64,000 bases of DNA from Candidatus Latescibacterota bacterium. GTDB taxonomy: Bacteria > Latescibacterota > UBA2968 > GCA-2709665. Every line of letters begins with the position of its first letter. Position 1 is the first letter of the stretch. Shown piece after piece: positions 14,444 through 39,799 of the stretch. The translations under genes were made by a program, and so were the position numbers. Under the pieces are notes generated by a model. That model saw nothing but the letters and a program-made list of their open reading frames with translations. It did no database searches and was not told the DNA's origin. The stretch spans positions 672,001 to 736,000 of the forward strand of contig OZ244937.1 in the NCBI GenBank assembly GCA_965222075.1. The letters are read 5' to 3'.

Positions 14444-14524
14444 TAAATGTTCCCACCCTTCCCAACCCCACCCCAGTTGCGAGTCGTGGGTTCCCCACCA
14501 CCCCCAGTCAGATGGAGAATTTCA

Positions 14525-16078
14525 ATGTTGGAACAGCGTCCTGTCAATCCTGCAGAAATTCAGAAAGACATTAAAGAATTTCTTGAGAAGAAGTACGGCA
14601 CCCAGGTGATTATTCCGCAGGCTGAGGTCGAGGGCATCCAGGAGGGACCCCACACGATTGACCCCGAAGAGGAGACGATCGATTTTGACCTGAAGCCGGA
14701 AGAGCTGGAGGCCTTTCTCAACGAATATGTCATCAAGCAGACCGAGGCCAAAGAGGTTCTGGCGACCAAGATCTGTACGCATTTTAACCGGATGAAACTG
14801 GACCGGGAAAATCCCGAAGATGCGCACGCGTTTGTGGGCAACATCAAGAATAACATCCTGCTTATCGGGCCCACAGGGGTGGGGAAGACCTATCTGATCA
14901 AGCTTATTGCCCAGCGAATCGGCGTTCCTTTTGTTAAGGGTGATGCTACCAAGTTTAGCGAGACCGGTTATGTGGGCGGCGATGTAGAGGATCTGGTTCG
15001 AGAACTGGTGCGAGAGGCAGGGGGGAATATTGAGAAGGCCCAGTATGGTATTATTTATATCGATGAGATCGATAAGATCGCTTCCACACCAAACCTTGTG
15101 GGACCCGATGTCTCCCGGACCGGCGTACAGCGCAATCTCCTGAAGCTTATGGAGGAGACCGAGGTCGATTTGAAGGCGCCGCACGACCTGGCCTCTCAGA
15201 TGGAGGCCGTGATGCAATTTCAGCAGAGCGGAAAGATGGAGCGTAAGAAGATCAATACGCGAAACATCCTGTTTATTGTAAGCGGGGCCTTCAACGAGCT
15301 TGAAGAGATTGTCAAACGCCGCCTCAACAAGCGCAGTGTGGGCTTCAAGCCCGAGTCGGAGCGCGTTGAGGACCAGGAGTTCGGTCAAGCGGCCTATCTC
15401 AAGCAGGTCACCTCGGAAGACCTGATCGAGTACGGTTTTGAATCGGAGTTTATCGGACGCCTGCCGATTGTGGCCGTTCTGGAACCGCTTACGGTAGACG
15501 ATCTGTATGAGATCTTAAAGAATCCGAATTCTTCGGTGATCTTAGGCAAGAAACGGGACTTTCAGGCCTATGGGATCGCGTTGACGTTTGAGGGTGAGGC
15601 CCTCCGCCGGCTGTCCGCGCTGGCCGCTCAGGAACAGACCGGTGCGCGTGCGCTGGTGAGTGTTTGTGAACGCGCCCTTCTGAAGTTTGAAAAGAAGCTG
15701 CCCTCTAACGAGATTCGCTCGTTTACGGTCACGGAGGCCGTGGTGAACCATCCGGAGGCCGAACTCCGGAAGCTGCTGATTTCCCGGGAGATTGCCGCTT
15801 ATATCGATCGCTTTTACCAGGCGTACGGTATCGAGCTGAGCTTTGACGACGACGCTCTGGCGTTCTTAGCCGAAGAGGCTGCCCGGCAAGGGCTTTCGGT
15901 GGTCGACCTCTGCCATAGCAGGTTCAACGATTACGGTCATGGTCTCAAACTGCTGGGGCAGACCGGGTTCCGGCTTACCCGGGCAGCCGCCGAGCGGCCC
16001 AAGGAACACTTAGACGAGCTTGTGAAGGCGTTTTACAATCAAAAGGAGGTTGAGGTCAGCAGAGTCGATGGCCAATAG
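14525..16078 (+). CDS. ClpX-like AAA+ ATPase lacking the N-terminal zinc-binding domain
   Basis: GPTGVGKT, ETGYVG pore loop, YIDEIDKI, DVSRTGVQ, VGF loop, TGARAL; no CxxC motifs; C-terminal extension. Confidence 0.88.
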   Translation: MLEQRPVNPAEIQKDIKEFLEKKYGTQVIIPQAEVEGIQEGPHTIDPEEETIDFDLKPEELEAFLNEYVIKQTEAKEVLATKICTHFNRMKLDRENPEDAHAFVGNIKNNILLIGPTGVGKTYLIKLIAQRIGVPFVKGDATKFSETGYVGGDVEDLVRELVREAGGNIEKAQYGIIYIDEIDKIASTPNLVGPDVSRTGVQRNLLKLMEETEVDLKAPHDLASQMEAVMQFQQSGKMERKKINTRNILFIVSGAFNELEEIVKRRLNKRSVGFKPESERVEDQEFGQAAYLKQVTSEDLIEYGFESEFIGRLPIVAVLEPLTVDDLYEILKNPNSSVILGKKRDFQAYGIALTFEGEALRRLSALAAQEQTGARALVSVCERALLKFEKKLPSNEIRSFTVTEAVVNHPEAELRKLLISREIAAYIDRFYQAYGIELSFDDDALAFLAEEAARQGLSVVDLCHSRFNDYGHGLKLLGQTGFRLTRAAAERPKEHLDELVKAFYNQKEVEVSRVDGQ

Positions 16079-20008: not shown

Positions 20009-21394
20009 ATGGAGCTTGCGGAACCCGAGGTTGTCGATGGCTGTAGATTGTTAGAGAAACCCCCTGTAGATGCTTTGGCTCTGGAACACCGAAAGTTGCG
20101 CCGGGACGAGTTCTGGAGGGGGATTCCGGCGTATGAGAAGATCGACGCGGAGGCGTTTCATTCCCACGTGTTTCAGACGAGGTCTTCGATTACCAGCGTG
20201 GACAGGCTGGCGCAGGTCCTGGGCAATCGCGTTCCTGAAGCGTTCTACGAGGATGTCCGGGAGGGGCTCCGGCGATCGCCGATGAGCATCCGCATTTCGC
20301 CTTATATTCTGAGTCTGACCGATTGGGACGACCCCTACGGCGACCCGCTGCGGACCCAGTTTTTGCCCGTGGCTTCCCAGCAGCTGCCCGACCATCCGGA
20401 GCTCTACCTCGATTCTCTCAACGAGCAGGGGGATGCGCCCGTGCCCGGACTCACCCACCGGTATCCCGATCGGGCGCTTTTTCTTGCGCTGGATACCTGT
20501 CCCGTGTACTGCCGGTTCTGTACGCGCAGCTACGCGGTAGGGCTGGATACGGAAGAGGTCGAGAAGGTCCATCTGGGTGTGAGCCGGGAGCGCTGGGAGC
20601 GGGTTTTTGCATATATCGCCTCCCGCCCGGAACTGGAAGATATTGTGATAAGCGGGGGCGATGTGTACAATCTGAAGGCCGAGCAGATTCGGTTTCTTGG
20701 CGAGACGCTGCTGAAGATCGACCAGATCCGCCGGTTCCGCTTTGCCACCAAGGGGCCGGCGGTTATTCCGCAGAAGCTGCTGACGGATACGGCATGGGTG
20801 GATGCCCTGACCGGCGTGGTGGAGATGGGCCGCAGGATGCACAAAGAGGTGGTGCTGCACACGCACTTCAACCATCCCGCGGAGATTACCGGGGTGACGC
20901 AGGATGCGATGGACCTCCTGATGGAGCGGGGGATTAAGGTACGCAACCAGGCGGTGCTGCAGCGGGGGGTGAACGACGATGCAGCAACGATGAACCTGTT
21001 GATTAAGCGGCTCAGCTACGTCAATGTGCAGCCCTATTACGTTTTCTTTCACGATCTGGTGCAGGGGGTAGAAGATTTGCGGACGTCGCTGGAGGCAGGG
21101 CTTCGGGTCGAGAAGCAGGTGCGGGGGACCACGGCGGGCTTCAATACGCCGACCTTTATCGTGGATACCCTGGGCGGGGGCGGCAAACGGGACGCCCATT
21201 CCTATGAGTACTATAACCGGGAGACGGGGGTTGCGGTGTATACAAGCCCTGTTGTTCGTCCGGGGGCATATTTCTTCTACTTCGATCCGATCGATTGCTT
21301 AGACGGCAAGGTCCGGAACCGCTGGGCGGATCCGGTTTGGCGGCGGCAGGTGATGGAAGAGGCCCTGGCGGTGGCGAAACAGAGGGTGGGTTGA
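20009..21394 (+). CDS. KamA-family radical SAM amino acid 2,3-aminomutase
   Basis: THRYPDR, CPVYCRFC, SGGD, HFNHP, NQAVL, PYY and GGGGK PLP-lysine motif; substrate not assignable. Confidence 0.9.
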   Translation: MELAEPEVVDGCRLLEKPPVDALALEHRKLRRDEFWRGIPAYEKIDAEAFHSHVFQTRSSITSVDRLAQVLGNRVPEAFYEDVREGLRRSPMSIRISPYILSLTDWDDPYGDPLRTQFLPVASQQLPDHPELYLDSLNEQGDAPVPGLTHRYPDRALFLALDTCPVYCRFCTRSYAVGLDTEEVEKVHLGVSRERWERVFAYIASRPELEDIVISGGDVYNLKAEQIRFLGETLLKIDQIRRFRFATKGPAVIPQKLLTDTAWVDALTGVVEMGRRMHKEVVLHTHFNHPAEITGVTQDAMDLLMERGIKVRNQAVLQRGVNDDAATMNLLIKRLSYVNVQPYYVFFHDLVQGVEDLRTSLEAGLRVEKQVRGTTAGFNTPTFIVDTLGGGGKRDAHSYEYYNRETGVAVYTSPVVRPGAYFFYFDPIDCLDGKVRNRWADPVWRRQVMEEALAVAKQRVG

Positions 21395-21425: not shown

Positions 21426-21461
21426 AAAAAGAGCAGTCCCACTGAGGGCTGCTCTTTTTTT
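21426..21461 (+). terminator. Intrinsic (bidirectional) terminator
   Basis: aaaaagagcagtccc...gggctgctcttttttt. Confidence 0.85.
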
Positions 21462-21583
21462 GTAAAGATAGTTTTTAGCATATCAGCGAAATTTTATTTT
21501 AAATTTGGATCGGTGTTTTTGCTGGAGAGATACATAAATCTATTAAAATATGAAACTTTTTGCATCTATGTTTATTTTAATGC

Positions 21584-21621
21584 TTGACAAATTTAGAGAG
21601 TTTAGTTAGCTTATAAGCTAA
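21584..21621 (+). promoter_or_regulatory. Promoter with overlapping perfect 16-bp palindrome (candidate operator)
   Basis: TTGACA (21584)-17 bp-TAGCTT; TTAGCTTATAAGCTAA at 21606-21621 covers the -10 box. Confidence 0.65.
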
Positions 21622-21675
21622 TAATTCGATGTTGGAAAGGTTCAACGGTAAACTATATATTCAGGAGGAACGATC

Positions 21676-22815
21676 ATGAGCGGTGCTTTTGGCAGGCGGC
21701 TGCGGGAGTTGAGGGCTGAACGTAAAATTTTACAGGGCGTTTTTGCGGAAAAGTGCCAGATTTCGTCGTCGTACCTGTCAGACATCGAACGGAGCAGGCG
21801 AAACCCCCCGGCGGATCAGGTGATTCTGGAGTGGGCGCGTTTCTTAGATCCGGGCAATGCAGAGGAGATCGGTGGGGAACTGGTCGACCTTGCAGCCCGT
21901 GACCGGAGGCGAGCAGAGGCCGTTACCGAGACAGAGGTCGAAGAGGCCGCTACGATCTGGGAAACATCCGGCGCACAGGGCGGCAGGGAAGACAAGCAGG
22001 CGGAAAAAAGCAGCAGGAAGAGCGAGACCCCCTTCCTCGACCATTTCGGCGTGGACATGGTCGCGCTTGCCCGCGAAGGCCGGCTGGACCCGGCGCCCGA
22101 GCGTTCCTGGGAGTTTGAAGAGGTGGCCTGCGCGCTTGCCTGCCGGAAATGCAACAGCGCTGTGTTGACATACGAAACGAATGCCGAGATTTATCGCGTG
22201 GTGCAGGGGCTGGCCTGCGAGATCGCCGATGGGCGAGCGCCGGAGCCGCCGGCGGGTAAGCGGCTGCTGACGCTGAACGGGGTGCAGGCGGGCGTCAAGT
22301 ACCGGGGTCAGTTCGAGGAACGGTTGAAGGCCCTGATCGACGAGACCGCGAAGATCAGGGATGTGGTGATGTACTTCCACAGTCTGGCGGACCTGGTGGA
22401 CCTGGAAGGGAATGCGAAAGGATCGTTCTTTCGTCCGGCGCTTCAGGAGGGCACGATCCAGGTGATTACGGGCGCTACGCCGGGAGAGATGGACTACGCC
22501 CGAAAGGTGAACCCAGGGCTTGCCGAATGTTTCAGGACGGTGCCAATCCGGCCGCTGGATCGTGATGGCGTCTTAAGAGGGTTGTACGGGGTGCGCGACA
22601 GATATGGCAGTCATCACGGTGTGACGTATTCCGAAGAGGCGCTGGTTGCCGTTGTGGATACCGCTGAAGCGGACGGTGAGGTCGAATTCTGGCAGCGGGC
22701 GCTCGATCTGCTCGACGAGGTAGGCGCACGTCTACGTCTGAAGGGAGACAGGAGGGAGGTCACGATGGAGGATGTGGACCGGGCAACCACAGGGACTACG
22801 CGAACAGTTCCCTGA
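21676..22815 (+). CDS. XRE-family HTH fused to a degenerate ClpA/B/C first AAA module
   Basis: FGRRLRELR...SYLSDIER HTH; TPFLDHFG...AREGRLDP, AGVKYRGQFEERLK, ITGAT, RDRYGSHHGV and ALDLLDE match Clp D1; Walker A/B eroded; AGGAGG RBS. Confidence 0.85.
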   Translation: MSGAFGRRLRELRAERKILQGVFAEKCQISSSYLSDIERSRRNPPADQVILEWARFLDPGNAEEIGGELVDLAARDRRRAEAVTETEVEEAATIWETSGAQGGREDKQAEKSSRKSETPFLDHFGVDMVALAREGRLDPAPERSWEFEEVACALACRKCNSAVLTYETNAEIYRVVQGLACEIADGRAPEPPAGKRLLTLNGVQAGVKYRGQFEERLKALIDETAKIRDVVMYFHSLADLVDLEGNAKGSFFRPALQEGTIQVITGATPGEMDYARKVNPGLAECFRTVPIRPLDRDGVLRGLYGVRDRYGSHHGVTYSEEALVAVVDTAEADGEVEFWQRALDLLDEVGARLRLKGDRREVTMEDVDRATTGTTRTVP

Positions 22816-25210: not shown

Positions 25211-25610
25211 CTACGGGCTCTGGATCTTTGCGAGATCCCGATTCGTCACCCGAGTATAGATCTGTGTGGTCTTTGGGCTTACGTGCCCGAGCAACACCTG
25301 GATATATCGCAGGTCGGTCCCGCGCTCAAGCAGGTGTGTCGCAAAGGAGTGCCGCAGCGTATGTATCGATATCCGCTTGTTAATATTGGCTTTTTTGCAA
25401 GCCCGGTCAAACGCTTTCTGTACCGCCCGCCCGGTCACCCGGCCTGGCGCCCGGGAACAGCCATGTTCGGGGTTGATATTGGCGCCTGTAGTCTTGAACC
25501 GCCTTCTGTGCGACCGTGGAGAGCATCGTGTAGCGATCCTTCCGGTGCTTGCCCTGGCGGATATGGAGCAGTTTTCGATCCCCGTCGATGTCTTCGACCT
25601 GGAATCGTCT
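25211..25610 (-). pseudogene. Truncated, frameshifted tyrosine recombinase/integrase
   Basis: [26 protein letters not shown]...WLFPG, frameshift near 25438, then [13 protein letters not shown]...LLGH...TTQIY; N-terminal half absent. Confidence 0.88.
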
Positions 25611-25663
25611 TGATTCTCTCTACACCGTCCCGCGAATAAGAAAACCGTTTGTGAAACGGCAAG

Positions 25664-25777
25664 TTATGTGTCAGATGGGAGAATATCCTTCTGAAACTTC
25701 CTCAGCGCCTCCCGGGTGGCCGCCTTCAGTTCCCCATCAATCGGTCCGGTTTCATACCCCAGGTGATTTAAAATCAT
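25664..25777 (-). pseudogene. Fragment of a peptidoglycan-binding (PG_binding_1-like) domain
   Basis: Hand translation MILNHLGYETGPIDGELKAATREALRKFQKDILPSDT*; not in the ORF track. Confidence 0.6.
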
Positions 25778-25823
25778 TTATTGATATGTGCTGCGCGCTG
25801 ATTCGTCCTGCTCTGCCTTCAAA

Positions 25824-25862
25824 GCATAAAGGGTAGCCCCACCGCTGGGCTACCCTTTATGC
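25824..25862. repeat. Perfect 16-bp-arm inverted repeat at the toxin 3' end
   Basis: gcataaagggtagccc-caccgct-gggctaccctttatgc. Confidence 0.8.
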
Positions 25863-26248
25863 TGGGTAACCATTGGCTCTTGACACGATGGCGACTCTGT
25901 ATCTATGGGTCTGACGATTGCATAGATTCCCTGTAGTACTTCGTTGAATCGGGCGCGACTTAAAACCCCGATTCGACCGTCGAGCATCGAACGGTCTACG
26001 GTTGCGATCTGAGAGATATTGACGACGCAGCTCCCTGAAAGGCCCGCTTCGCCTTTTGAGAGCGTCACATTGCCGAATGCCCGACCGAGCCGCAAATTGC
26101 CGGTGATGGCTACAACAACGACCGTTGAGATTCTGCTGGCGTTAAACGCGTTGTTCTGAATGATCACACAGGGACGCCGATAAGGGGGCTCCGATCCCTT
26201 TGGGACGCCGAAATCAACCCAGTGGACTTCGCCCTGTGAGATTACTAT
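25850..26248 (-). pseudogene. mazF: MazF/PemK toxin whose start codon reads ATA
   Basis: (ATA)VISQGEVHWVDFGVPKGSEPPYRRPCVIIQNNAFN...VVVAIT...VVNISQI. Confidence 0.8.
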
Positions 26249-26490
26249 TCCTCTTTCCCCGCCAGGTCCCGAAAGTGAGACAGAGCAGCGCGTCTGAAAG
26301 CGACATCGTCGGGCGTATCTCCTTCTCCGTGCACCTGGTTCAGGTTCGCAACAATGGCCTTTGCGGATTGTTTTTCGATATAAGCCCTTGCCGCCCTCTG
26401 GAAAAATTCGCTGCGTGATATGTTGGCGGTTTTGAGGAATATTTCGATGCTCTCATTGAGGGCATCGGGAATCGAGATTGCCGTTTTCAT
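26245..26490 (-). CDS. Ribbon-helix-helix antitoxin (MazE/ChpI-like)
   Basis: MKTAISIPD...SRSEFFQRA; directly upstream of the MazF-like toxin. Confidence 0.85.
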   Translation of the reverse strand: MKTAISIPDALNESIEIFLKTANISRSEFFQRAARAYIEKQSAKAIVANLNQVHGEGDTPDDVAFRRAALSHFRDLAGKEE

Positions 26491-26555
26491 GCGGTTTTAT
26501 ATACCATTCTTATAGCTGTTTCTCAACCGGGATTGTCCAAAGTTTAGTATAATGG

Positions 26556-27335
26556 TTAGCCAACCAGGTTTTGTAGAAACTCGCGGCTTAGCTGTTGCGC
26601 AATTTCAGAGTCTGGAACTTGCTCGTAAAGCACTCCCATGAGCTCTCCACGCTGGGCATTGACGGGGGGTTCCAAGGCCTCAATCAAGACCGCCTCCAGG
26701 ATACGGATAAGGCGTCTTAGATCGAATTCTTTTCGTGAGTGTCCCAGTTCACCGTTGTCACTAACATTGCAGAATCCGAACCAAGAAAACTTGTCCCATC
26801 TCGGTGACTTGCGATCTCGATTGTGATCGCGCAACCGTTCAAATAGGCTGGCGTCAGTCCTGCCGACGTAAACGACTGATCGGTCCTTGTGGAGCAGATA
26901 TACGCCTCGCTGTTCAGCAAAATTTACCGAGGCCGCATCACGCGTCTGACGTCCAAGCATTTTGCGCTTCTTCCAATTTACTTTCTGTCTCTCCCAGTAC
27001 AGCCCAAAAGCAGGCACTCCGATTGAATCCTCGGTTTGTTCGTCCTCTTCGATGTCCTCTCTTTCTCGCACTACAGGCTGCTCATCTTCCTTTGTGCTGA
27101 CGAATTCGTAAACCCCTCTGGTCACACGTCGAATCCTATTGTCGTACGAATTAGCTTCAGGATCTACCATTGAAAGCAGGCACGCCCTTACTGTCGCAGA
27201 AGGCGTGGCCCCCGAGAGGGCTCTTAGCCCGCGGGCCCCTATCATTTCGGTTATTCGCTGGTAGTGGAGCGGCTGGTAAGAATCCTCAAGAACTCTCGTG
27301 ATGGCTTCTTGCCATGTTATGTCATCAGATGCCAT
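26556..27335 (-). CDS. HARE-HTH plus GIY-YIG nuclease domain protein
   Basis: TWQEAITRVLE...PLHYQRI...GATPSATV N-terminus; GVYLLH...VYVGRT...RL...H...LEAVLI...N C-terminus. Confidence 0.8.
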   Translation of the reverse strand: MASDDITWQEAITRVLEDSYQPLHYQRITEMIGARGLRALSGATPSATVRACLLSMVDPEANSYDNRIRRVTRGVYEFVSTKEDEQPVVREREDIEEDEQTEDSIGVPAFGLYWERQKVNWKKRKMLGRQTRDAASVNFAEQRGVYLLHKDRSVVYVGRTDASLFERLRDHNRDRKSPRWDKFSWFGFCNVSDNGELGHSRKEFDLRRLIRILEAVLIEALEPPVNAQRGELMGVLYEQVPDSEIAQQLSREFLQNLVG

Positions 27336-27450
27336 TTTCCTGTCCTCTATTGGGAAGGGGCTTAGTTGATGAGGCCACGGTGCTCCTGAGATTGCGGGCG
27401 CACTTTCCTCTGCGGCCGGTTACATCGTGTCTTTCTCTCCAGGTCGACGA

Positions 27451-27768
27451 TCACGATTCATCCTCCACGAAGAATCCCAGATCCGGATGGTCCTTCACTA
27501 TGGTGAGAAGTGCTTGCTCAGCCTGTTCTCGCTTCTTGCGTTGGGCCACATCAGTGGGGAACTCCTCCGGGCAGTCCGACGGATCGTCCACCATGCTGGC
27601 AAAGATGACGGCGCGGCAAGCCGCCAATGGACGACGTGCCCACCAAAGATGTAAGGTGGACGGATGGCCGTGCCGGATAGATTTCTCGCGTGCAGACTCG
27701 CGGTTGATATCGTCGAGGGGCAGGTCAACTTCGATGAGTTTACGGCGGTATTGGGTTTGGGTAGTCAT
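27451..27768 (-). pseudogene. N-terminal fragment of a DUF1156 adenine methyltransferase
   Basis: [45 protein letters not shown]; similarity stops after about 80 aa. Confidence 0.85.
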
Positions 27769-27973
27769 ATCAGCGCATCGTCCCTGCGTTTGACTGAATC
27801 AGGTTGGCTGGTTAGGTCCAATGCCAAGATCAAACTGAACCGTCTGTGATGGAGGGAGAGGGATATGCTGCTTGATAAATGCACGTCCGGTATGGTTTTC
27901 AACGATTTTGACCGCAGGGGTCCCGGTAAACGTATGGGTAGTTGCATGAAATACCGACAGACTGAATGCAGGT

Positions 27974-28183
27974 TTACTGGGCGTTAGCGTGGTCAGTCGT
28001 TATCACAATTTCCGAGTGTTTGGTTGCCTGACGGTAAGAATCAAGCCCCTTATCCGCCTTCTGGTAATTTTGGTAAACCTGCATAACTTCGCGGACACCC
28101 GGGCGGGCCAGCGCCTCCTTTAGCATGGCGGCATGTTCTTGCTCACGGTTGGAACTTTGAGGCTTTGCTGTGTGTTTGGGCAT
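27974..28183 (-). CDS. Hypothetical small protein
   Basis: 69-aa ORF with AGGAGA RBS; no recognisable motif. Confidence 0.5.
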   Translation of the reverse strand: MPKHTAKPQSSNREQEHAAMLKEALARPGVREVMQVYQNYQKADKGLDSYRQATKHSEIVITTDHANAQ

Positions 28184-28199
28184 GGGGAGTCTCCTGTTG

Positions 28200-28337
28200 G
28201 GTTAGTAGTCTCGCTGCGTGAACGTTGGGATCTGCCTCGCTTGGATCACTTTCTTTGGCCCAGCGCATGTCGTGGCCGACTCTGCGCAGACGAGCGACGG
28301 TGTGCTCCGACATATTTTCGTCGTCCAGTATTTTCAC
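28200..28337 (-). pseudogene. N-terminal fragment of a DUF5615 PIN-like toxin
   Basis: MKILDDENMSEHTVARLRRVGHDM...DP resembles the MKFLADEN...LR.AGHDV pattern, then breaks off. Confidence 0.6.
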
Positions 28338-28492
28338 GGTCTTTCGCTGTTTTGCCAGATCATCTTGTATCTTCCGCCTATAACCGGCGCCTCGGCAGCC
28401 AGAGACGGGTTTGCAGCATCATTTGGCGCATCCAATCCACGCTCGTTTTAGGGCGGCAACCCGGCGGCGGCCTGGCCGGTTTCGAAGGGAAG

Positions 28493-30421
28493 TCATCTGG
28501 CATTAAACGCCATCAAAGCTGCGTCGGCTCTACCGCAGGAAACCCATAGCTCAGGCACGGCATGACAAAGCCACTTCAGGGACGAGCAGAACACCTGCCC
28601 TTCCTCATCTTTCAAATCGCCGAATGCGAATTCCGTAAGCCAGTCACCGACAAATTCTGTCCATTCGCTCAGGTCCGAACGGCTTGCAGCGGCTACGAGG
28701 CAAATCGTTATGACCTCCTGTATAGACAACGCATACTCAGCATCGTGCCTGTATCTACGTACAAGGATTCGCAATTCGTCCGCAAGCGTGGGACTCCTTG
28801 TAACGGCGGCAACCGTAGCTAACCCATTCAATATAGTAACAAGCTGCGATCTGTTCTCTATGTTTTGAAGTCGATGGCTGGCACGCATCAGCGCTTTTGC
28901 CGCTAATTCAGCCTGGTCTGCACTAATGGGAAAAATCAAGGCGAAATTCACAAGAGCAATAAACGATGATGGCCCTACTTCGTTTGCGCGGAGCTGTGTC
29001 TCAATCGCTTCTGCGACTTCGGGAGGCAAATTGCGATGCGTACCTTCGGTTCCCTCTAATGGTCCAGGTAACCATGGGCCAGGGGAAACCACCAAGAGAC
29101 TGAAGACTTCTGGCATCATCTCCGAATACCAGGTCATATATATGGCTACCCGCTATATTCTGCTCGTAGTCCTTAGCTGAGATCATGATGCGACCGAAGA
29201 ATTCAGCCTTCATTTGTGAAGCCACTGCAAGATCGGGATCCCAGTGCGGCTCCAAACGCATATCGGCGAGCGATTGCATGCAATATTGCTCTATACGACT
29301 GCTAAACGCCCATTTACTGAATTGATCAATATCAATAGCTGAATTCACAAACTGACGATGAATCAATGTGGCCTGTGACAAGGCTGCCAATCTCCTGTAG
29401 AAAGGAGGCTCCTTCCGAAACAACTGGATTCTTGATAACTCTCCATCCACAAGACAGAACAATGCCGAGAGAAGCTTGAAACCGCTCGTTTGTCCATCAA
29501 CGTCGTCGTCTCGAATCTGCTCAATGAGACGAATAAGTGCCTGCTCTATCTCAGGTCGTGACGGAAGAACGCGAAAGCCGACTTCAATGGCCCCCAACTG
29601 CGAGATTCTGTCTCCATGTTTTTCCAAAAAATTGTAGGCTCTTACAAGGTCTTCACGACTCAAATGGTCAACATTGATTTCGTCCGTTAGCGAAGAATGT
29701 GATGACAGAAGAGGCTAAACATAAAGCCATCATAGGATCGCCACGCAGCCAGTTGATCAAAGAGCGCTCTGCCGTTACCAGAGGCATAATCGCGAATGGA
29801 GGCACTTCCGTCATATTCGCCTACAAGTCTTTCAAAATATCTACGTGAAGGAGGAACCAGAGAGGATATACTACCTTGTCTGCCTATAATCTCACTGCGT
29901 ATGGTTCGTGTCTTTGCGACTGGCGTATCGTGAAACTCACTGTGAAACGCATCGACTTCGTCATCTTCGAGAGCACGTTCCGCAAGAATATTGCGCCATG
30001 GGTCTGATGCACTGTTGGGTAGATTGACGTCGGAAGCGGCTTCATCAAAGGAACGCAGACGTGTATCTCTATCTGGGGAAAGTGCCGCAAAAGTAGACGG
30101 GAGAAGATGCTGTTCATCGCAAGAAAGTGAAAGACGCGGCAGTTCTCCTTCTCCGCTGATGTTCTTTATTTTCCACTTTTGTCCCTTCGTGTCAGTCACT
30201 TCCTGTATTGATGCGCCTGCAAGAACCTTTCGAATAGCATGACACAGACTGGAACATTGAACTAAAATATCAAAATCACGAAAGGTAAGAATAGGATCCG
30301 CCGTAAAACCGTATTCCTCCCGAAAATCCGAATCCTCAAGCAAAGTCTCACGTATAAGGGGAGGCACAAAATTCAAAGCTGCCTGCGCCAATGCAGATCT
30401 GACATCAAGACTATTCGTCAT
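28493..30421 (-). CDS. Uncharacterised ~642-aa helical protein with two single-base frameshifts; partner of the HNH-TPR-PIN gene
   Basis: ORFs 29687..30421, 29001..29663 and 28493..29137 join with a -1 indel near 29708 and a +1 indel near 29077; ATGA overlap with the upstream gene. Confidence 0.7.
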
Positions 30422-33400
30422 TTATCCTCCCTCTCCATCATATCCATACCAACCACGTCTACAATTCGTCTTCGATACCATTCGACCAGATCAAGATACA
30501 AATCGGGATTTTGTTCCTTGAGCGGAGCCAAAACTCTCTCGTCGACCCACCTCCAGTATTCGTCCTTGACTTCTTGGGGCTCTTTGATCGGGGGTACGAG
30601 CATTGATAGGATATTTGTACCACGTCCAGTTTTGACCATGTTCTCTCCATCTTCTTTTCCAAGACTGTGCGCCCAGCCGCGAACGTCAATCAGGTTCAAA
30701 ATCCAGTCAGAGCGTACCCGCGCACTCGCAACGTCAACATCGGCCCTCCACAAGCCTGCCAGCACTCGGCTGAACACTTGTAGCAACGTCTCTAACCAAG
30801 GAGTTTCTTTCGGACGCTGAAGCCAAGTACTCATCCGAACCTGAAGGATGTTTTCTCGTATAGCCTTCAGTTCGGCCGTCTCAACAAACTTGCCGTCCTC
30901 GACCACAGAGGCATCAAGATAATGTGTCAGTTCATCCTCGCTTACTGGTACAAAGAAATATCCGGCCTGGCGAAGTCGAGTCCTGTACTCCAGCCGTTCT
31001 TCGGCCGTTTTAGTACCCGTGGAGACCAGTGCATCGATAAGATCCAACGTTGAAAATATCGGCGCATGTGCGTCGCCATCAACGATATTGGCATGTTGGT
31101 TGAGGTATCTGTCATCCAAAATGATTGCATCACAATGCCTTGCCAAGAAGGAAACACCAGCGGTCGGGTGTTCATATATTAGCTGCTCTTTTGATTGACT
31201 AACGTTGATGCGCTTGCTTACCTTTACTTTTCCTGACTCTATCCGCGAATTGACGGCAGACCGTATGCGTTCTATGGCGTCCTCAACCTTGCCAGAAACA
31301 CCTGCGTAAGAAATGAGTAGATTTATTTCAGATTCCGTTCTTGGCGAAATAATCGGTCTGAAGCCAGCGGCTCGGAGTTTTCCCAGTATCCCAAGATGAA
31401 GGAAACGGTATACAGCCAAGTCATCCAGGTACAGTACCGCCCCATCAGCAATCTGCGGCTGATCTGGCCACGACTTCTCGTGAAGTTGAAAATAGGCTCG
31501 CGCCTTCTCTACTTCGTTCGCCGTAATCTGGCCCTTCTTCCGCAACTTGTCCACAATAGATTGACAACTACTCAGCACGGTTGCATGCGCTGTTAAGTCA
31601 GCTTCTTCTTCCATCAGAGAAGCGACCCGATGAACCGGAGACGACTGAACAACAATGCGCTGTGAATCGTCTTCGTTTCTCACCTTTTCCGCCTCCGCTA
31701 TAAACAGCGCCAACTCATCCCCAACCTGATCGGATAGATCACTATCCGGTACAGTGCTTGGCGAGAGTTCTTCTAACGCACCTGTGGCCAGCAAATGCCT
31801 CACCTCATGCGCATCTTTAATCCGGCTTGGCTGATGAAATGCAACCCTCTGTTTTTCCTCAAAAAGCCAACTAAGAGTTGAATGTGGTATGTGGACTGTA
31901 CCAAAAGCGTCCAATGCCTCATCAAGCACATTCAGAAAGCTCAAGGTGAGTAATGCGGTTGCATCCATTCCAACCTGCCCACTGGTATTGAGGCGTGTCG
32001 GCTGTCGTTGACCGCTATATGCGGGAACAACGTCTCTGCGTCTCGGATCGCTCTCCGACAGGTTCGCCCAAGCACGGAGAAACATCAAATCGCAAAGTGA
32101 CGTGTTGAAGGCTTGAGCTGCAAGAAACATCGGAAGCTCGCCACGGGTCAACCGCTGCGATATTTCAGAGGTTCGTTGATCCCACTCCGGTTTCCGGTCC
32201 AAAAGATCCCTCAGTGTCATCTTTCCGATTGGACCATCATCGCCAGAGATTGTGGCGGCTTTGTGCATCCACTGAGAGACTTCCTTGTCCTCCCAACCGG
32301 CTTTTGTTGCAAGAAAGTAGGCTGTTCCTAATACATCAGCATCGTCTTTTCCTTTCTCTACCGCTGCAAATATCAACTCTTTTGCATGGGAGATAGAATC
32401 CAAACCAACGGCCAATTGAGCTGTCCCTATCAATTCCTGAGCGTTTCTCTTGTCTTTTTTCTTGCATTCGTTAGCTACAAACGCAGAAACGGAGTTCCAG
32501 TCACCCAAAGAGATTCCAAGATTGATCTGTAGTGTGCGGTAGTTCGGGTCATCCCAATCATCACCCAGTTCCGCCAATTTGGAGCGAGCCTCCAGTAGCG
32601 CACCTTCATGGTACAAAGACAAGCAATGCAGCTGTTGGAGTTGCTTGGATTGTTCCAAAAGCGTCTTGTTCGATTCCAGAAATTCTGCAAGTGGTTCATA
32701 TTCCTGTGTATTGTGTAAAGCGGTTGCCAACCGCTCCCCATCGCTCAGCGCGTGGGTTCTTTCAAACAGAATTCTACCATACTCGCTAAGGCTGTCCCAG
32801 TCGTCTCTAATTTCGAGTTCGTGAACAAGGATTTCCAAATCATGCAGTGAATCTGTCTCTCTGAACTGTTCCTTACGAGCCTCAACCGGATTAGTCCCCT
32901 CTGCTTCGGCAATGATTCCCCGAAGTCGGCGTTCCTGCCCCTCAGAAAGTCCGTCTTCCAAAAGAATATCCAAGCACTTTTTGGCCTGCTCAAGCTGCCC
33001 GGCCCGCGCAAACAACTCGATTTGGACAAACTGCATATATTTTTTGTCAATGTGTTCGGCAAGCGTGTCGTGGTGCCGGGCGATATAATTCGCAGCAGCC
33101 CCTGGGGTCTTTTGGACGAAAACCAGAGCAAAGCGAGCACTTGCGGTGTCAGCAGTATTTCCGCCGTTCAGGGCAATTTGTCGTTCGATTTCCTGTTCAA
33201 CTACCGCCGTATCCAATTTTATTCCGAATTGAAGGCCGAGACGAACAAGATGTAGAGCGGTCTTGGCATCGCGAAGTTTGGATTCCAGTCGCATTCTTCC
33301 TTCGGCACATTTATCAGAATCCGTGAGTTCAAGCCAAAGTGCATACTCATCATCTATTTTTTCTGCAAGGGGACAGTCTAATTTACGTGCAACCTTTGCA

Positions 33401-34516
33401 GCGTCGATAAAGTTACGATGTGCAGCTCGGCGGGCTTCAAGTGCAGCTAAGTCTGAGGCAAGAGGGAAGTTTACGACATCGAAAGGTGGTTGGTTAAGCA
33501 CACCAGAGCGAAGTTCGTCAGGTACCGCTCTTAGGAGGTGTGTTACTGCCACCATGTGATGGAGGACAGGGGCATCGCGCAGATCGTCATCAGTCAGCAC
33601 ATCAAGGCTTTTCTGCGCTGCCTCCCAATCGGCGAGTTCAAACTGACGCGCCAATAGGAAGCATTTGCCGTCGGGGTCCAGGTTTGTAGCGTCAATACCA
33701 GCCTTTTTCAACCAGTCAACAGCTTCTTGTGGGCCGTCATGATGTGTAACGACCATAAGCGCCGCAGATCGGGATACCGGTGAATCAATGCCAGCCAGAG
33801 TGCTCAGAGCAGCCTCCTTATCATCCTTCCGCGAAGATATGAAGGCTGCCGCAATCTCGATTTCCGGGCAAGTTCCCAATTCATTGGCACATGCGAAGAA
33901 CGATTCTGCTTTGTATAAATCGCCATCTGCCAGCAATCGTACGCACCAGGCTAATGCTTTGCTCCTTACCACATCAGTGCCACCCGAGAGTTTTCCTTCT
34001 ATCAGTTTTCTCGCGAGTGCTAATGAAGAGTCGACCCTATCGAACTCTCCGAAAAAGCGAGATTTACGGAGTATATCGGTCTCATCCTTAATTTTTTGAT
34101 CAACGAGTTCCGTTGGGAAATCAGAACGAGAAGACACATTCGACAAAACACTACCTAAGCCTGCGGAGAGCCGATTCTCTATCACTTTAGCTTCATGCTC
34201 CTGCTTCCACTGCTTGAGCATTTCGGCCGGATAAGTTTCAGGTTGACCATCCACCACGTACATGGTGAGTCGGACAAAGTAAGATCAGATTCTCTGGAGA
34301 ATTCAGTTCTTCATTGGTGAGTCCGACTTTTCCTCTTGGGCCATCGACATTAATAGCATAAATGTGGCATATTTGAGTAACGACATGAGCATCGGACTGT
34401 TCAGTCGCTGCTTCAATAACAGTGTTCTCACATTCTGGATGCGCGCATTGATTTCCGCTCAGACCGAACAGGACTTTCAATGTCTTCTGTGAATAATTTC
34501 GTTTAGATGTTTTCAT
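30418..34516 (-). CDS. HNH endonuclease-TPR-like-tandem PIN-like protein (about 1365 aa, one +1 frameshift near 34258)
   Basis: SGNQCAHPEC...ICHI...NLILLCPTHH joins VVDGQPETY; long helical repeats; MDATALLTL, LDDLAV and LDDRYL PIN-like acidic motifs. Confidence 0.75.
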
Positions 34517-34562
34517 TCTTCCTGGTTAATAACGTCTGCATCAATCCGTATTTTTGGGGCTT

Positions 34563-34597
34563 TGTTGCCTGTCTGCCGGCGAGGCAGGCAGGCAACA
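34563..34597. repeat. CCTGCC/GGCAGG palindromic element
   Basis: tgttgcctgtctgcc-ggcga-ggcaggcaggcaaca; related copies at 39996 and 59306. Confidence 0.7.
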
Positions 34598-34698
34598 CCG
34601 TCTCCACATCCCCGGCCGCCAGGGCGTTCATGTAGGCCAGGATCAGGTCGTGGGTGCAGTAGCGCCCGAATGCATCGACCTTCGGCGACGATGGGATC
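34598..34698 (-). repeat. Diverged duplicate of the 3' end of the type IIG RM gene
   Basis: Encodes AFGRYCTHDLILAYMNALAAGDVETV versus AFGRYHTRDLILAYMSALAAGDTETE at 35716-35791. Confidence 0.9.
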
Positions 34699-35185
34699 AC
34701 GTCGTCTCGCCGGCACGTTCTAACACCCTCTGGCGAGTCTTGGCGTTCAGCCGAAACCGCAGGGCTTGGAGACGATCCAAAACGGGCCGAATCGCGTCGA
34801 GAACGCCTCGCTCCTTGGCCCGCAACAAGAGGCCGAGGGTGCCTGAGACCTCCAACTCCAGTGCCCGGGCATACCGCCGTGCGTCTCGATCATCAAGGAG
34901 GAGCAGCGCGTCCTGTGTTTCCAGTCCCAGGGCGAGCACTTCCTTCTCGCCATCCCCAAGATGCGTCACCAGAGGGAGCAGCGTCGGATCGCGCACCGGC
35001 CGCACGATCAGCCACGAAAGCTCCTCCAGAGCAGGCAGGCGTACATTTCGCCGTCGACCCTCTCGTAACTCCGCCGCCACCGCTTCCGGGACGTACACTT
35101 GTCCGACGAGTGCGGGCAGAAGTTCCAACACGTCGGCCTGGTGCAGGTACTGGAGAGGAGAAGTATTACAGATGACGTCGGGCAC
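34697..35185 (-). CDS. DUF3368 PIN-domain toxin
   Basis: ICNTSPL, VPEAVAAE, LGDGEKE, LLDDRDAR, GTLGLL. Confidence 0.9.
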   Translation of the reverse strand: MPDVICNTSPLQYLHQADVLELLPALVGQVYVPEAVAAELREGRRRNVRLPALEELSWLIVRPVRDPTLLPLVTHLGDGEKEVLALGLETQDALLLLDDRDARRYARALELEVSGTLGLLLRAKERGVLDAIRPVLDRLQALRFRLNAKTRQRVLERAGETT

Positions 35186-35432
35186 TGGCCAGATCCTGTT
35201 GGAGGTCTTCCTCGGTCAGGTGGAAGGCATCAACACCGTAGTCAGCTAATTTTATTAGAAACAATGGCTTGGGAATGTCAGCCAGCTTGGCTGCCGCCCC
35301 CGAGGACAACCGTCCCAACTCGTAGAGCTTGACGGCGACGAGGATCTTGGCCTCTTCGCTGAACTGCCTGGGTGAATATCCCAGGGCCAGCAGGACCTCA
35401 TCGCCGTAGTCAATGGTCAACGTTCTCTTCAT
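35166..35432 (-). CDS. UPF0175 family antitoxin
   Basis: AVKLYELGRLSSGAAAKLA...FL..LADYGV; overlaps the DUF3368 gene. Confidence 0.9.
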   Translation of the reverse strand: MKRTLTIDYGDEVLLALGYSPRQFSEEAKILVAVKLYELGRLSSGAAAKLADIPKPLFLIKLADYGVDAFHLTEEDLQQDLASARRHL

Positions 35433-35701
35433 CGTATCGTGTCTCCATGGATGTGTTGCATAGCGGACGCCTTCTCTAAGTTTTCTTGCATATCGCTCTC
35501 ACAGGCAAGGAGAAATAAGTTTTGTCTGAGTTCACCTGACAAACCCTGAGAGAGGTCGAAGCAAGATCTAAGTTGCCTGTGAGGAGAGCGGGATGCATAT
35601 TGATTGACGTATCCTCAGCTCACAGGAGGTAGACAGAGACTTAATCCCCATGCAGTCGTATCTGTGCCGCCTAAACCCAGAACAGAGCCACCCGCCTTCA
35701 T

Positions 35702-38700
35702 TCACACCGCCACCTCCGTCTCCGTATCCCCCGCCGCAAGGGCGCTCATGTAGGCCAGGATCAGGTCGCGGGTGTGGTAGCGGCCGAAGGCGGCCTTGTC
35801 TCCGCGGCGGACAATCGGGAAGGTGTCCAGCACGTAGCCCGCGTCGTCCCGGCTCAGACCGTAGAGGTGGAAGTAGAGCGCGTCGAGGCGGGCACGGAGG
35901 TGGCGGCGTTCTTCTTCGTCCCACACGAAAGGCGGGCCCTCACAGCCCAGGTCGCGGGCGAAGGGCGCCATGTCGTGCGCGGTGTAGGTGAGGCGTAGCA
36001 CATGGTCGCGGACGAGGTCGCGGGCGGTCGTCGTGCCGAATGAGCGGTCGTAGTCGGCGGATGCGATGACAGGGAGTTGCTCGACTGTGTACCAGGTGAG
36101 ATGAGTACCCTGGAATTTTGTGGCGTGTCACATAATCGAAGCAATGGCTGTTGAGATTCGCAACAACGAGGCAAGCGTCGGCTGCGGAAAAATCGTCCTC
36201 CGGCATCAAAATGAAGACGCTGTCACTCAACCCGACTTTTGGCACGGCGGCTGCAATCATGGTCCTAACATCTGTTGGACGTGCTATACGCCTATACGCA
36301 ATCGTCCAGCCAAGCCTGTCGGGCATATTGTGACTTACTTCCTGCTCCAGAACCCAGTATTGTGTCATAGGGCTAAATGCTGGATTGGCGTGTTCGGCGA
36401 CAGTTACAGCCACGCTCAGATACGGATTTATAGTGTTGTCTGGATTGTATTTTACCGAATTGGCCCGATGGTCGAACTGACGAATCATCCGGCCCTGGTA
36501 CAGCGGCAAATACAGCTCCTCGCCCCGTCTCCAGCGATTGCCCTGCACCGGGTAGAAACCTTCGGCATCGAGCTGCGCGGCGGTGCGGAAGAGGTGGGAG
36601 TCATTGGCCATGTGGAACATGGTGTTGTACCGAATCGGCCAGGCGCGGCGCTCCTCACCCCTTGAGCGGTCCACCAGCACCGGATGCCGCTCGTAGATGC
36701 GACGGGTGATCTCGGCGTCCCGTTGGCTGCGGAAAACGGGCGCGGTGCCGGTGTTGGGGTTCACGCGGGCGAAGTCCACCGGCGTCAATGGAAAGCAGCG
36801 GTCCTTGTCATGGATCGTTTTCGTGTCGTGCAGGAAGAAGGCGCATTCGGTCTGATCGAACAGTCGCTCCTCTCCGCCGAATATGAGGGCGCAGAATTTG
36901 AACGAAGCATGAACGTCCTTGAAGAAAATTTTCTTGTTCTCAAAATCAAACAGGCCGCCCACCCGTCCACTTGTGGAAACGGACTTGAAGAACCGGGCCG
37001 CGGTCTTGTCCGCGTAAATGCCCGACGGCGTCAGCAGGCCGACAAAACCATCCGGCTTGATCAGGTTCATGGCCCGCTCGACGAACAGCGAGTACAGGTT
37101 GACGTCGCCACCGCCCAACAGGGGATAGTGCTCAGATGCGCGAACCAGTTGGCTGAGTTTGTCAGCGCGTGTCTTGGCCGCGTCGAACTCGGCCGCAAGG
37201 GGCGCTCCTTTGTCACGCAACCGCTGAATGCCTGTTCGCCGCGCAGCCGCCGTGGGCGCGAGAGCGAGCTCGGGGTCACGCGTTGCAAACCACTCCACCT
37301 CCTGCAGCTTGATGCGGTCCCACGGCGGGTTGCCGATGACCGCGTCAAAGCCGCCTTGCGGGCGGCTGTTTTGCCACTGCCGCCACACCCCCGGAAAAGC
37401 CACCTCCCAGTGCAGGAAGCCTTCCCGATTGGCAATGGTTCGCGCCCCGCGCCACAGCTCGGCAAACTGCGCCCAGGTGGTGGCATCGGAATCGGGAGCC
37501 TCGTCGCCCAGATGCACCGGCCCTCGCGCCAGAAGCTGGTACGCCTTCGCCGACTGCCGCCCGAGCGTCGTGACCAGCGGTCCCTCAAAGGCCGCGCGCT
37601 CTTTCTTCTTCATGCCCGCGGTCAGCCAACGCCAGCCGCAGAGGGTGTCGAGCAGACCGCGGAGGTCCGCAGTCGTCTCCTCCACCCCGTGAAACAGCGC
37701 CGCCGATTCGTGCACCTCGGCCACGTCGGCGTCGGACATCTCCTCGATGCGCTGCATCCCTTCGGTGGCGGCCTCCGCCCCGGCAATGGCGCTACTGGCA
37801 AAGAACCCGCCGAGCCGATTCAATTCATCCGTGGCATCCTTTACCCGCAGGCCGACCAGCGAGTCGCCGCAGCGCAGGTGGTGGTCCAGGAAGGACAACG
37901 GCGCGCCCACCGTGAAGCTGTGCAGCCACAGTGACACCTTGGCCAATTCGACCGTCAGGGGATTCTTGTCCACCCCGTAAATGCACCGTTTGAGCACCAT
38001 GCGGCGGATAATGGCCTGGTCGCTAAGCTGGGCCTCGTCCAGCACCCAGTTCGATTCCTCAGCCCGTCGGATGATCTCACGGCGAATCGTTGCCACGCGC
38101 CCCACCAGCGGCGACACGTAACCGTCATCCAGCCACTCCGGGACCGCAGGGACGTATTCGATCAACTCGGCAATATAGTCGGACAGGAAATCCACCGCGG
38201 TAACCAGGAAATGGCCGCTTCCCATCGCCGGGTCCAGCACCTTCAGGTCCAGGACGGCCTCGGCCGGGTCGAGCCGCTCAAGCTCAGCCTGTCGTTCCGA
38301 CCTGGGCCGGCGGTCGCTCTTGAGCGCGGCGGCCTTGTCCTCGAAAGCTTTGAGACGCTCTTCGGCCAGCGGCTTCAGGGTGCGGTCAACGATCAGATCG
38401 ACGAGTTCCTGAGAGGTATAGAAACTGCCGCTGTCCTTGCGGGCGTAGGGATTGGGACGGACGGCGATCTTGCCGTCGTCGTCACGCACCGGCTCGCGCT
38501 CCAATAGCCGCTCGTAGATCGAGCCGAGTTGCTGCACCGACATGTCGCGGTAATTGACAAAGCGGTGCTTTCCCTGTGGATCTCTGGCGTGGCTCAGATC
38601 GTAGATGATAGGCGCGATTTTGGCGTCGGCCAGGCGGACCGATTCCAGCAATGGAGCGGCTTCAGACGCAAACAGCCCCCCGTTGTAGGGCGGGAGGCCA

Positions 38701-39740: not shown

Positions 39741-39799
39741 TTTGAAGAAATTGTTTTTCCTGTGGCTTTCTCGCCATGTGATTCCCATATTATACCATC

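Follow-up and report, generated by a model that had tools for sequence, protein, structure and literature searches.

A predicted XRE-type regulator of Latescibacterota carries a Clp D1 module that lacks its ATP motifs and retains its pore loop

We analysed a gene of a Candidatus Latescibacterota bacterium whose 379-aa product, P0001, joins an N-terminal XRE-type helix-turn-helix (HTH) to a module of the Clp D1 type. The gene lies in a 64,000-nt stretch (contig OZ244937.1 of assembly GCA_965222075.1; G000:C1:672001-736000), hereafter the window, of a single-contig 5.36-Mb genome (G000). We put the probability at roughly 0.55 that P0001 represents a family of one-component regulators in which a ClpC-type D1, joined to an XRE HTH, has lost its ATP function, which control their own genes, take their input through the pseudo-D1 and stand outside the nearby defence island. 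What is new is the joining of an XRE one-component regulator to an AAA+ pseudoenzyme, both being kinds of protein that are already known. A preliminary description of the locus had proposed the fusion of an XRE HTH to a Clp D1-like module, and Pfam, NCBIfam, the PDB and Foldseek agree on it.

NCBIfam models of ClpA, ClpB, ClpG, ClpK and ClpV match P0001 over aa ~100-374 with E-values of 5e-35 to 2.5e-28. The scores are roughly a tenth of the equivalog cut-offs, which are missed (ClpA, 120.8 bits vs 993, E 5e-35; ClpB, 114.2 bits vs 1232, E 6e-33). Performing a phmmer search against the PDB, we obtained 49 chains, the best being ClpB and ClpC D1 domains (E 1e-32). The AlphaFold2 model, built on a 36-sequence family alignment, has a mean predicted local distance difference test (pLDDT) score of 86.6; in it, aa 1-83 form a helical N-terminal domain and aa 119-375 an alpha/beta AAA+ module that includes the lid. 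Foldseek placed this module on the D1 ring of ClpC1 (9jvp_B) with an E-value of 3e-18, a root-mean-square deviation of 2.5 Å over 266 columns and a query-normalised template modelling score of 0.62; D1 domains of other ClpC, ClpA and ClpB proteins were also matched, while the ESM Atlas gave generic AAA clusters only (0.83-0.84). The pseudo-D1 large subdomain opens with the ClpC linker motif TPFLDHFGxD, AAA_lid_9 covers aa 303-371 (36.2 bits, Pfam cut-off 22.8), and the C-terminus falls at the point where the ClpC M-domain would start. The Pfam scan of P0001 (E <= 1) gave neither PF00004 nor Sigma54_activat, and no Pfam match to Clp_N, AAA_2 or ClpB_D2-small was seen in the 379 aa, which end at the D1 lid.

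The family was delimited by a homologue search across 5.8 billion proteins, which returned 73 matches. The first 40 (P0002-P0041) share the architecture of P0001, with E-values of 6e-235 to 5e-76, 46-94% identity and lengths of 214-381 aa, fragments included; PF00004 is absent from the precomputed domain lists of all of them. From P0042 onward (E 7e-41 and weaker), the matches are ordinary Clp ATPases or their fragments. Our alignment holds P0001 and 35 homologues, the fragments P0028 and P0038-P0041 being omitted. In a profile search of 1.84 billion representatives clustered at 50%, the family comprised 4 full-length and 4 fragment representatives, followed by active Clp ATPases; P0092, which scored just below the family, is a Clp ATPase fragment. 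A weak search for fused or longer forms through aa 1-135 found none among 1499 candidates. P0093-P0096 were considered as intermediates and rejected, being tandem-D1 ATPases with an intact GxxGxGKT; their high profile scores arise because each has two active D1-like modules. These four proteins (749-933 aa) carry the two modules consecutively, with Walker A intact in both, behind long non-Clp N-termini, and they have no D2-type module save for a weak AAA_2 match in P0094.

The ATP motifs are gone throughout this family. The preliminary description had claimed that Walker A, Walker B and the arginine finger of P0001 were replaced, and the PDB alignments confirm all three replacements (Table 1; at the finger, ERRF aligns with AECF). 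None of the 36 family members has GK[ST] at the Walker A position, none has D-E at Walker B, and none has an arginine at either finger position. The former Walker A position is relaxed, with 31 different 8-mers among the 36 sequences, and in the model a helix (H169-184) begins inside the former P-loop. Conserved motifs specific to the family stand in place of the catalytic ones: (L)LYxHSLADLVDLE, whose SLADLVDLE directly follows the former Walker B position, (V)ECF, and FWQRALDLLDEVG / FWQRALDLLDEVGAR. The pore loop, in contrast, was kept, as had also been claimed. Clp KYRGEFEERLK aligns with KYRGQFEERLK in P0001, and KY[RQ]GQ[LF]EER is present in 36/36 members. Within the module, conservation is highest in the pore-loop block and the lid; the module's invariant residues are G206, K208, Y209, G211, Q212, E214, E215, R216, S250, H314 and D347. 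Set against a Clp/Hsp100 ATPase, P0001 has the fold and the pore loop, and it lacks Walker A and B, the finger, D2, Clp_N and scores above the cut-offs. Judged by its motifs, it is not a Clp/Hsp100 ATPase in the functional sense and is predicted to be a pseudo-ATPase.

The module is, on the substitution pattern, under purifying selection. Calculating dN/dS (the ratio of non-synonymous to synonymous substitution rates) by the Nei-Gojobori method, we find 0.35 against the 94%-identical copy of genome G021 (HTH 0.15, D1 large subdomain 0.35, lid 0.63), a comparison with few substitutions, and ~0.13 against G026 and G097, where dS is saturated. A conserved loss of the Walker motifs under such selection had been put forward as the check on the proposed architecture; about 40 homologues, the loss in 36/36 and dN/dS values of 0.13-0.35 are in line with it.

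The N-terminal domain scores above the Pfam cut-offs for HTH_31 (37.7 bits, cut-off 27) and HTH_3 (28.6 bits, cut-off 23) over aa 4-56, and its closest solved HTH in the PDB is that of DdrOC (E 2e-5). Mean column conservation is 0.77 in the HTH, 0.70 in the helix of aa 59-83 and 0.34 in the linker of aa 84-115. The helix, in which L69 is invariant and D76 almost invariant, may be a dimerisation element. A two-copy complex prediction of the full-length protein, run without controls, scored 0.00 against a mark of 0.42 and is uninformative on dimerisation.

The 270 nt before the open reading frame (ORF) are AT-rich (GC 0.49 in 21500-21999 vs ~0.6 around), and hold a perfect 16-bp palindrome, TTAGCTTATAAGCTAA, that is unique in the genome. 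The intact ORF with a ribosome-binding site and a candidate operator, noted in the preliminary description, was found in every part: an ATG ORF of 379 aa, AGGAGG and TTAGCTTATAAGCTAA. The palindrome is identical in G021, and relatives keep the arrangement with TTGACA, the hexamer lying 13-16 nt 5′ of the palindrome in G000, G021, G026 (TTGACA-13 nt-TTAGCTTATTAGCTAA) and G089 (TTGACA-16 nt-TTAGCTTATATGCTAA). Related palindromes occur at loci L123, L139 and L140, and L138 holds only the related TATGCTTATAAGCATA. We scanned 143-260 nt upstream of each locus (49 nt only at L138) for AGC-W6-GCT. It is present at 7 of the 9 family loci, at positions -26 to -79 relative to the start codon, and has 3 copies in the 5.36 Mb; it was found neither upstream in G097 nor within the 49 nt of L138. 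Weaker second sites lie 44-131 bp away at five loci (G000, G021, G026, L123, L139). The one in the window, TTAGCATATCAGCGAA, has one mismatch in ten half-site positions, and its counterpart at the same place in G021 is TTAGCATATAAGCGAA. The sequence evidence, strong though indirect, points to the HTH probably recognising the palindrome and to the gene being autoregulated; a role in transcription, claimed earlier, is supported by the conservation of this operator. The ORF forms its own transcription unit because a terminator-like hairpin, GAGCAGTCCCACTGAGGGCTGCTC with its T-run, separates it from the KamA-like gene upstream. A similar hairpin and T-run follow the KamA-like gene in G021, G026 and G003. 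The consensus scan does not list the hairpin because of a stem mismatch.

The module resembles the ClpC of its own lineage. The host's 835-aa class-I Clp ATPase is 38% identical to P0001 over aa 110-355. The two have the linker KS(K/E)TPFLDHFG(R/V)D...LAREG(K/R)LDP in common, and KYRGQFEER and the lid motifs HHGV and ALDLLDE are further motifs common to Clp D1; the alignment with the host protein stops at ...DETGSRVRL, the start of the M-domain. Where a relative has two class-I Clp paralogues, the E-values are 1e-41 to 1e-47 for the one of ClpC length and 1e-22 to 1e-30 for the second. We use the label 'ClpC-type' because of these best hits and the shared linker. On the simplest reading of the sequences, a ClpC-type D1 of the lineage was duplicated and cut before the M-domain, and an XRE HTH replaced Clp_N. 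The pattern KYRGQ[LF]EE also occurs in genuine ClpC genes of Fibrobacterota, Bacteroidota, Planctomycetota and others among the matches listed. A locus search led by it returned at least 600 stretches dominated by genuine ClpC, the best at 40% identity among the matches listed, and the search for family loci was repeated with an N-terminal alignment (A2). With P0001 as the query, G000 shows a single class-I Clp ATPase locus (C1:4791817), where most relatives show two; the ClpB-type paralogue of G000 may be missing, or may be too divergent for this query.

We picture the working of the protein as follows. A ClpC-type D1, once joined to an XRE HTH that took over the place of the Clp N-domain, would have lost all that is required to bind or hydrolyse ATP. 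The protein would bind TTAGC-N6-GCTAA as a dimer or higher oligomer and set the level of its own transcription, repression being likelier than activation in view of the site's position just 3′ of the conserved TTGACA. The non-catalytic D1 would be a signal-input or partner-binding domain, whose invariant GxKYRGQxEER pore-loop surface would bind a polypeptide or protein partner and so change operator occupancy. We favour a polypeptide or protein over a small molecule as the input because the nucleotide pocket is variable and the pore-loop block invariant. A narrower form of this idea is a chaperone-titration switch, in which unfolded proteins or ClpC would bind the pseudo-D1 through the pore loop and release the regulator from its operator or load it there; we regard it as possible, with the odds well against it.

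Table 1. Coordinates of the features of the regulator gene, its upstream region and the downstream island, in window positions
Feature	Position	Strand	Basis or remark
Terminator-like hairpin GAGCAGTCCCACTGAGGGCTGCTC with T7, closing the KamA-like gene	21431..21462	+	read directly
Weaker second operator-like site TTAGCATATCAGCGAA	21475..21490	.	131 bp 5′ of the main site
-35-like hexamer TTGACA	21584..21589	+	read directly; conserved
Perfect 16-bp palindrome TTAGCTTATAAGCTAA, candidate operator	21606..21621	.	starts 16 nt after TTGACA
Ribosome-binding site AGGAGG	21663..21668	+	7 nt 5′ of the ATG
Coding sequence of P0001, 379 aa, ATG start	21676..22815	+	ORF list and translation
XRE-type HTH, aa 4-56	21685..21843	+	Pfam
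Long conserved helix after the HTH, aa 59-83	21850..21924	+	AlphaFold model helix H59-83
Disordered, weakly conserved linker, aa 82-113	21919..22014	+	pLDDT <50
Pseudo-AAA+ large subdomain from Clp D1, aa 116-292	22021..22551	+	NCBIfam, PDB, model, Foldseek
Former Walker A, TYETNAEI replacing GEPGVGKT	22168..22191	+	PDB alignments
Pore-loop block GVKYRGQFEER, aa 206-216, where conservation in the protein is highest	22291..22323	+	family alignment
Former Walker B, YFHS replacing FIDE	22372..22383	+	PDB alignments
Former arginine finger, ECF replacing RRF	22525..22533	+	PDB alignments (ERRF vs AECF)
AAA lid (small subdomain), aa 293-375	22552..22800	+	AAA_lid_9, model helices H296-375
Phage-integrase fragment	25211-25438		island
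MazF/PemK-like toxin gene	25850-26167		island
HARE-HTH protein	26556-27335		island
Permuted GreAB-C	29687-30421		island, adjoins the PIN-TPR gene
1281-aa HTH/PIN-TPR-GreABC protein	30418-34263		island
1282-aa type IIG / DrmMI-like methylase-nuclease	35940-39788		island

The family is small and scattered. At E <= 1e-55 it is found in 5 of the 168 genomes of the phylum (G000, G021, G026, G089 and G097), and the named relatives that have it are mostly Candidatus Latescibacterota metagenome-assembled genomes (MAGs). The member at L123, in a MAG labelled Candidatus Moanabacter, is a full-length protein of 369 aa, with 48% identity across its N-terminal 135 aa. Of the 53 genomes of the order, three hold the gene and G003 holds a fragment. 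The gene sits in a block that is found order-wide, UPF0182 - KamA-like - [gene] - nucleoside 2-deoxyribosyltransferase (NDT). The KamA-like gene is present in 52/53 genomes of the order, and we sampled 30 loci around it. The regulator gene is intact in three (G000, G021, G026), left as remnants in two and without trace within 1.5 kb in 25; NDT directly follows KamA in 9/30. Both remnants are at the syntenic site 3′ of the KamA-like gene, one of 117 aa with 76% identity in G003 (L119 9845-10201), which keeps a partial operator-like site TTAGCATATTAGCTTA, and one of 56 aa with 45% identity in G002 (L173 160-327). From the intact, remnant and empty KamA loci we conclude that the gene is old at this site and was lost many times.

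The adjacency to the KamA-like and NDT genes looks like inherited synteny. Outside the order, the neighbours are a Gfo/Idh/MocA oxidoreductase and a TIM-barrel gene in G089, a hybrid histidine kinase in G097, an aldolase, an SDR and an enolase-superfamily gene at L123, and a divergent Gfo/Idh/MocA gene and a PdxA-fusion gene at L139. The Gfo/Idh/MocA gene at L139 (4189-5196, -) diverges from the family gene, with the operator region common to both, and the one in G089 (L115 7090-8097, +) is convergent with it. The best other operator candidate in G000, a 2-mismatch site GTAGCTTCTTAGCTTA at G000:C1:1959008, is 35 nt upstream of a putative Gfo/Idh/MocA-like gene (G000:C1:1957999-1958973, -), the identity of which was judged from its N-terminal sequence. 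This recurrence beside family loci may be chance, the Pfam family being a recurrent one there. The KamA-like gene of the window (20009-21394, +) encodes a KamA-family radical SAM protein (TIGR00238, 218.9 bits, cut-off 199.2) that stays below every specific aminomutase equivalog (lysine 2,3-aminomutase, 250 bits vs 525) and adjoins UPF0182 in 52/53 genomes of the order. Further upstream, at 14447-16078 (+), is a 543-aa ClpX-like AAA+ protein with AAA_2 and ClpB_D2-small (320 bits vs the ClpX equivalog cut-off of 359); it has ~80 extra N-terminal and 100 extra C-terminal residues, and is syntenic in G021 and G003.

Several observations weigh against the reading of P0001 as a self-controlling regulator with a pseudo-D1 input. 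In the consensus scan, TTGACA is unpaired with any -10 hexamer of at least 4/6 matches, and the sole promoter listed, TTGGAA-18-TATATT (21632-21661), is downstream of the palindrome. It is not conserved in G026 or G089, and its transcript would start at or after the ribosome-binding site; if it is real, the palindrome falls at roughly -45 to -60, a position that would suit activation. The half-site scan of the genome gave 17 matches with at most one mismatch vs ~100 expected by composition, the others being inside ORFs, and scans of the whole genome for exact and degenerate palindromes, with the candidates inspected, gave no convincing second target. Nor was a conserved partner gene seen in the contexts outside the order (G089, G097, L123, L139). 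The pore-loop block is highly conserved in active Clp D1 too, so its invariance may be partly structural. The gene is dispensable, yet constrained where it is intact. In the G097 homologue P0030 (L116 9915-10982; 55% identity), the N-terminus is replaced and HTH helices 1-2 are missing; no palindrome was found upstream of it and no alternative frame supplies the missing N-terminal part. P0027 also has a divergent N-terminus, and the pseudo-D1 is intact in both, so the module may act without DNA binding, or the P0030 copy may be decaying. As to expression, exact pieces of the gene (178-285 nt, depth 2.4-5.7) occur in all four RNA libraries from a single study, labelled sponge metagenome. They hint only weakly that the gene is expressed, the pieces being contigs from libraries that may contain DNA, with no silent control stretch compared. 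RNA pieces at 22013-22050 and 22296-22331, with 2-3 mismatches, were set aside as coming from Clp genes of other organisms.

Other explanations have to be weighed with these points in mind. The pseudo-D1 might be a pure scaffold, giving nucleotide-independent oligomerisation only, so that the HTHs bind 2-3 spaced sites cooperatively. The presence of at least two operator-like sites at the five loci named above speaks for this, and the variable former P-loop argues against a conserved small-molecule pocket. We find it doubtful, as it leaves unexplained the peak of conservation in the pore-loop block (36/36) amid surfaces that otherwise vary, and the conserved helix beside the HTH could already dimerise. 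It is unlikely, in our judgement, that the regulator is coupled to ClpC, the pseudo-D1 docking on host ClpC rings or inserting into them as a non-hydrolysing subunit or cap, with free ClpC driving the regulator onto DNA or away from it by titration, or with ClpC activity being tuned by the regulator. Co-assembly with host Clp hexamers had been suggested in the preliminary description, beside a sensing of unfolded or phage proteins. The derivation of the module from the ClpC-type D1 of the lineage, with TPFLDHFG, KYRGQFEER, HHGV and ALDLLDE kept, and the match to a ClpC-type paralogue in 52/53 genomes of the order favour such a coupling, as does the existence of degenerate AAA+ proteins whose partner is an active AAA+ protein, for example LAP1/LULL1 with Torsin. 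On the other hand, both ring-neighbour faces are altered, without nucleotide site or arginine finger; the module lacks D2, the M-domain and Clp_N; and no clp gene was co-localised in the 8 contexts examined.

The position of the gene at the edge of a defence island, as the preliminary description had it, was only partly right. A mobile and defence island is real (25211-39788; Table 1), but it starts ~2.4 kb past the ORF stop, with NDT and a DUF362 gene in between, and the conservation of the syntenic block across the order places the ORF outside it. It is very unlikely that the protein represses or senses for the TPR-GreAB-C-PIN and type IIG systems, or derives from a prophage. Besides the 2.4-kb distance, only generic HTH models of PADLOC-DB 2.0.0, matching aa 2-67 (HTH_VI 3e-8, capH 2e-6, control protein 2e-6), hint at such a link. 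Against it, UPF0182-KamA-gene-NDT stands in G000, G021 and G026 (as a remnant in G003) irrespective of the island, in G089, G097, L123 and L139 the gene stands among genes of metabolism or signalling, and no defence-system partner genes are adjacent here or in the relatives' contexts. No copy of the operator occurs elsewhere in the window. In the phage and plasmid collections, 0 of 170 and 0 of 2144 matching records, respectively, cover at least 80% of the protein, and the 6 loci in viral contigs are all HTH-only matches; we dropped the functional link to the island on these grounds. Highly improbable, too, is a decaying chimera, in which an HTH and a clpC fragment would have been joined by accident and would be drifting towards a pseudogene that lacks any function. 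The loss of the gene from most of the order, the remnants in G003 and G002 and the eroded N-terminus of the G097 copy would suit it. We reject it because homologues exist, the motif loss is universal and dN/dS is low. The 36 intact homologues, the most distant at 46% identity, come from no fewer than five Latescibacterota genomes plus one MAG of Candidatus Moanabacter, and the family has new motifs of its own and a conserved operator.

Selection took away each of the motor motifs, kept the pore-loop block and added a DNA-binding domain. To our knowledge, Clp/Hsp100 pore loops are understood only within an ATP-driven ring. If the loop of P0001 still binds a polypeptide or a Clp partner, the family would offer a simple natural system for Clp pore-loop action without ATP. 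A chaperone domain would then have been turned into a sensor for transcription, in a bacterial counterpart of the plant strigolactone/karrikin repressors. The titration switch, if true, would be an independently evolved bacterial counterpart of SMXL/D53, and its pore loop the first of a Clp protein to serve in signalling and not in threading. The scope of this is limited by a small family in uncultured bacteria, its repeated loss and a lack of any target found besides its own promoter. The family deserves its own definition because public annotation names its members only 'helix-turn-helix domain-containing protein' or, wrongly, 'ClpA/ClpC'.

P0001 has in common with the D1 of class-I Clp proteins (ClpC, ClpB, ClpA) the fold and the motifs TPFLDHFG, KYRGQFEER, HHGV and ALDLLDE. 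Unlike them, its family lacks Walker A, Walker B and the finger, and P0001 has no Clp_N, M-domain, D2 or ClpP-binding part, an XRE HTH standing instead of the N-domain. With XRE one-component regulators such as DdrO it shares the N-terminal HTH and a palindrome in its own promoter; its C-terminal domain, in contrast to theirs, is a Clp D1 pseudo-ATPase, and neither a COG2856-type partner protease gene nor a clp gene was found nearby, in the window or in the relatives' contexts. ClgR, an XRE-type regulator of clp genes in actinobacteria, is not known to have an AAA module. AAA+ and HTH also meet in one chain, with the AAA+ part used in regulation, in NtrC-type enhancer-binding proteins, TyrR and FleQ. 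Those proteins bind nucleotide, their AAA+ domain is of the Sigma54_activat type and their HTH is C-terminal and of the Fis type, whereas the HTH of P0001 is N-terminal and XRE-type, and its AAA+ part is a Clp D1 without Sigma54_activat. LAP1/LULL1 and the clamp-loader delta subunit use an AAA+ fold without nucleotide binding for protein-protein contacts. LAP1 provides an arginine finger to its active partner; the P0001 family, on the contrary, has lost the finger.

The preliminary description had remarked that this architecture was not known to it, and we likewise found no HTH-Clp D1 pseudo-ATPase published for bacteria or otherwise in full-text searches of the literature, whose coverage leaves out subscription journals. 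By analogy, the closest published idea comes from plants, where the Clp-like SMXL/D53/SMAX1 proteins, of N-D1-M-D2 layout, work as transcriptional repressors (PMC12639087). SMAX1 has a D2 whose degenerate Walker A has become a helix that occludes the nucleotide site, and SMXL proteins have an RGKT degron in D2 in place of a pore loop, and no HTH (PMC12639087). In both cases a Clp-derived protein would serve transcription control and not unfolding, and a helix of the P0001 model likewise starts in the former P-loop. The likeness is, judged as an analogy, convergent, the fusion not being of shared ancestry. Compared with SMXL as described there, P0001 keeps D1 only, has its own HTH and retains the pore loop.

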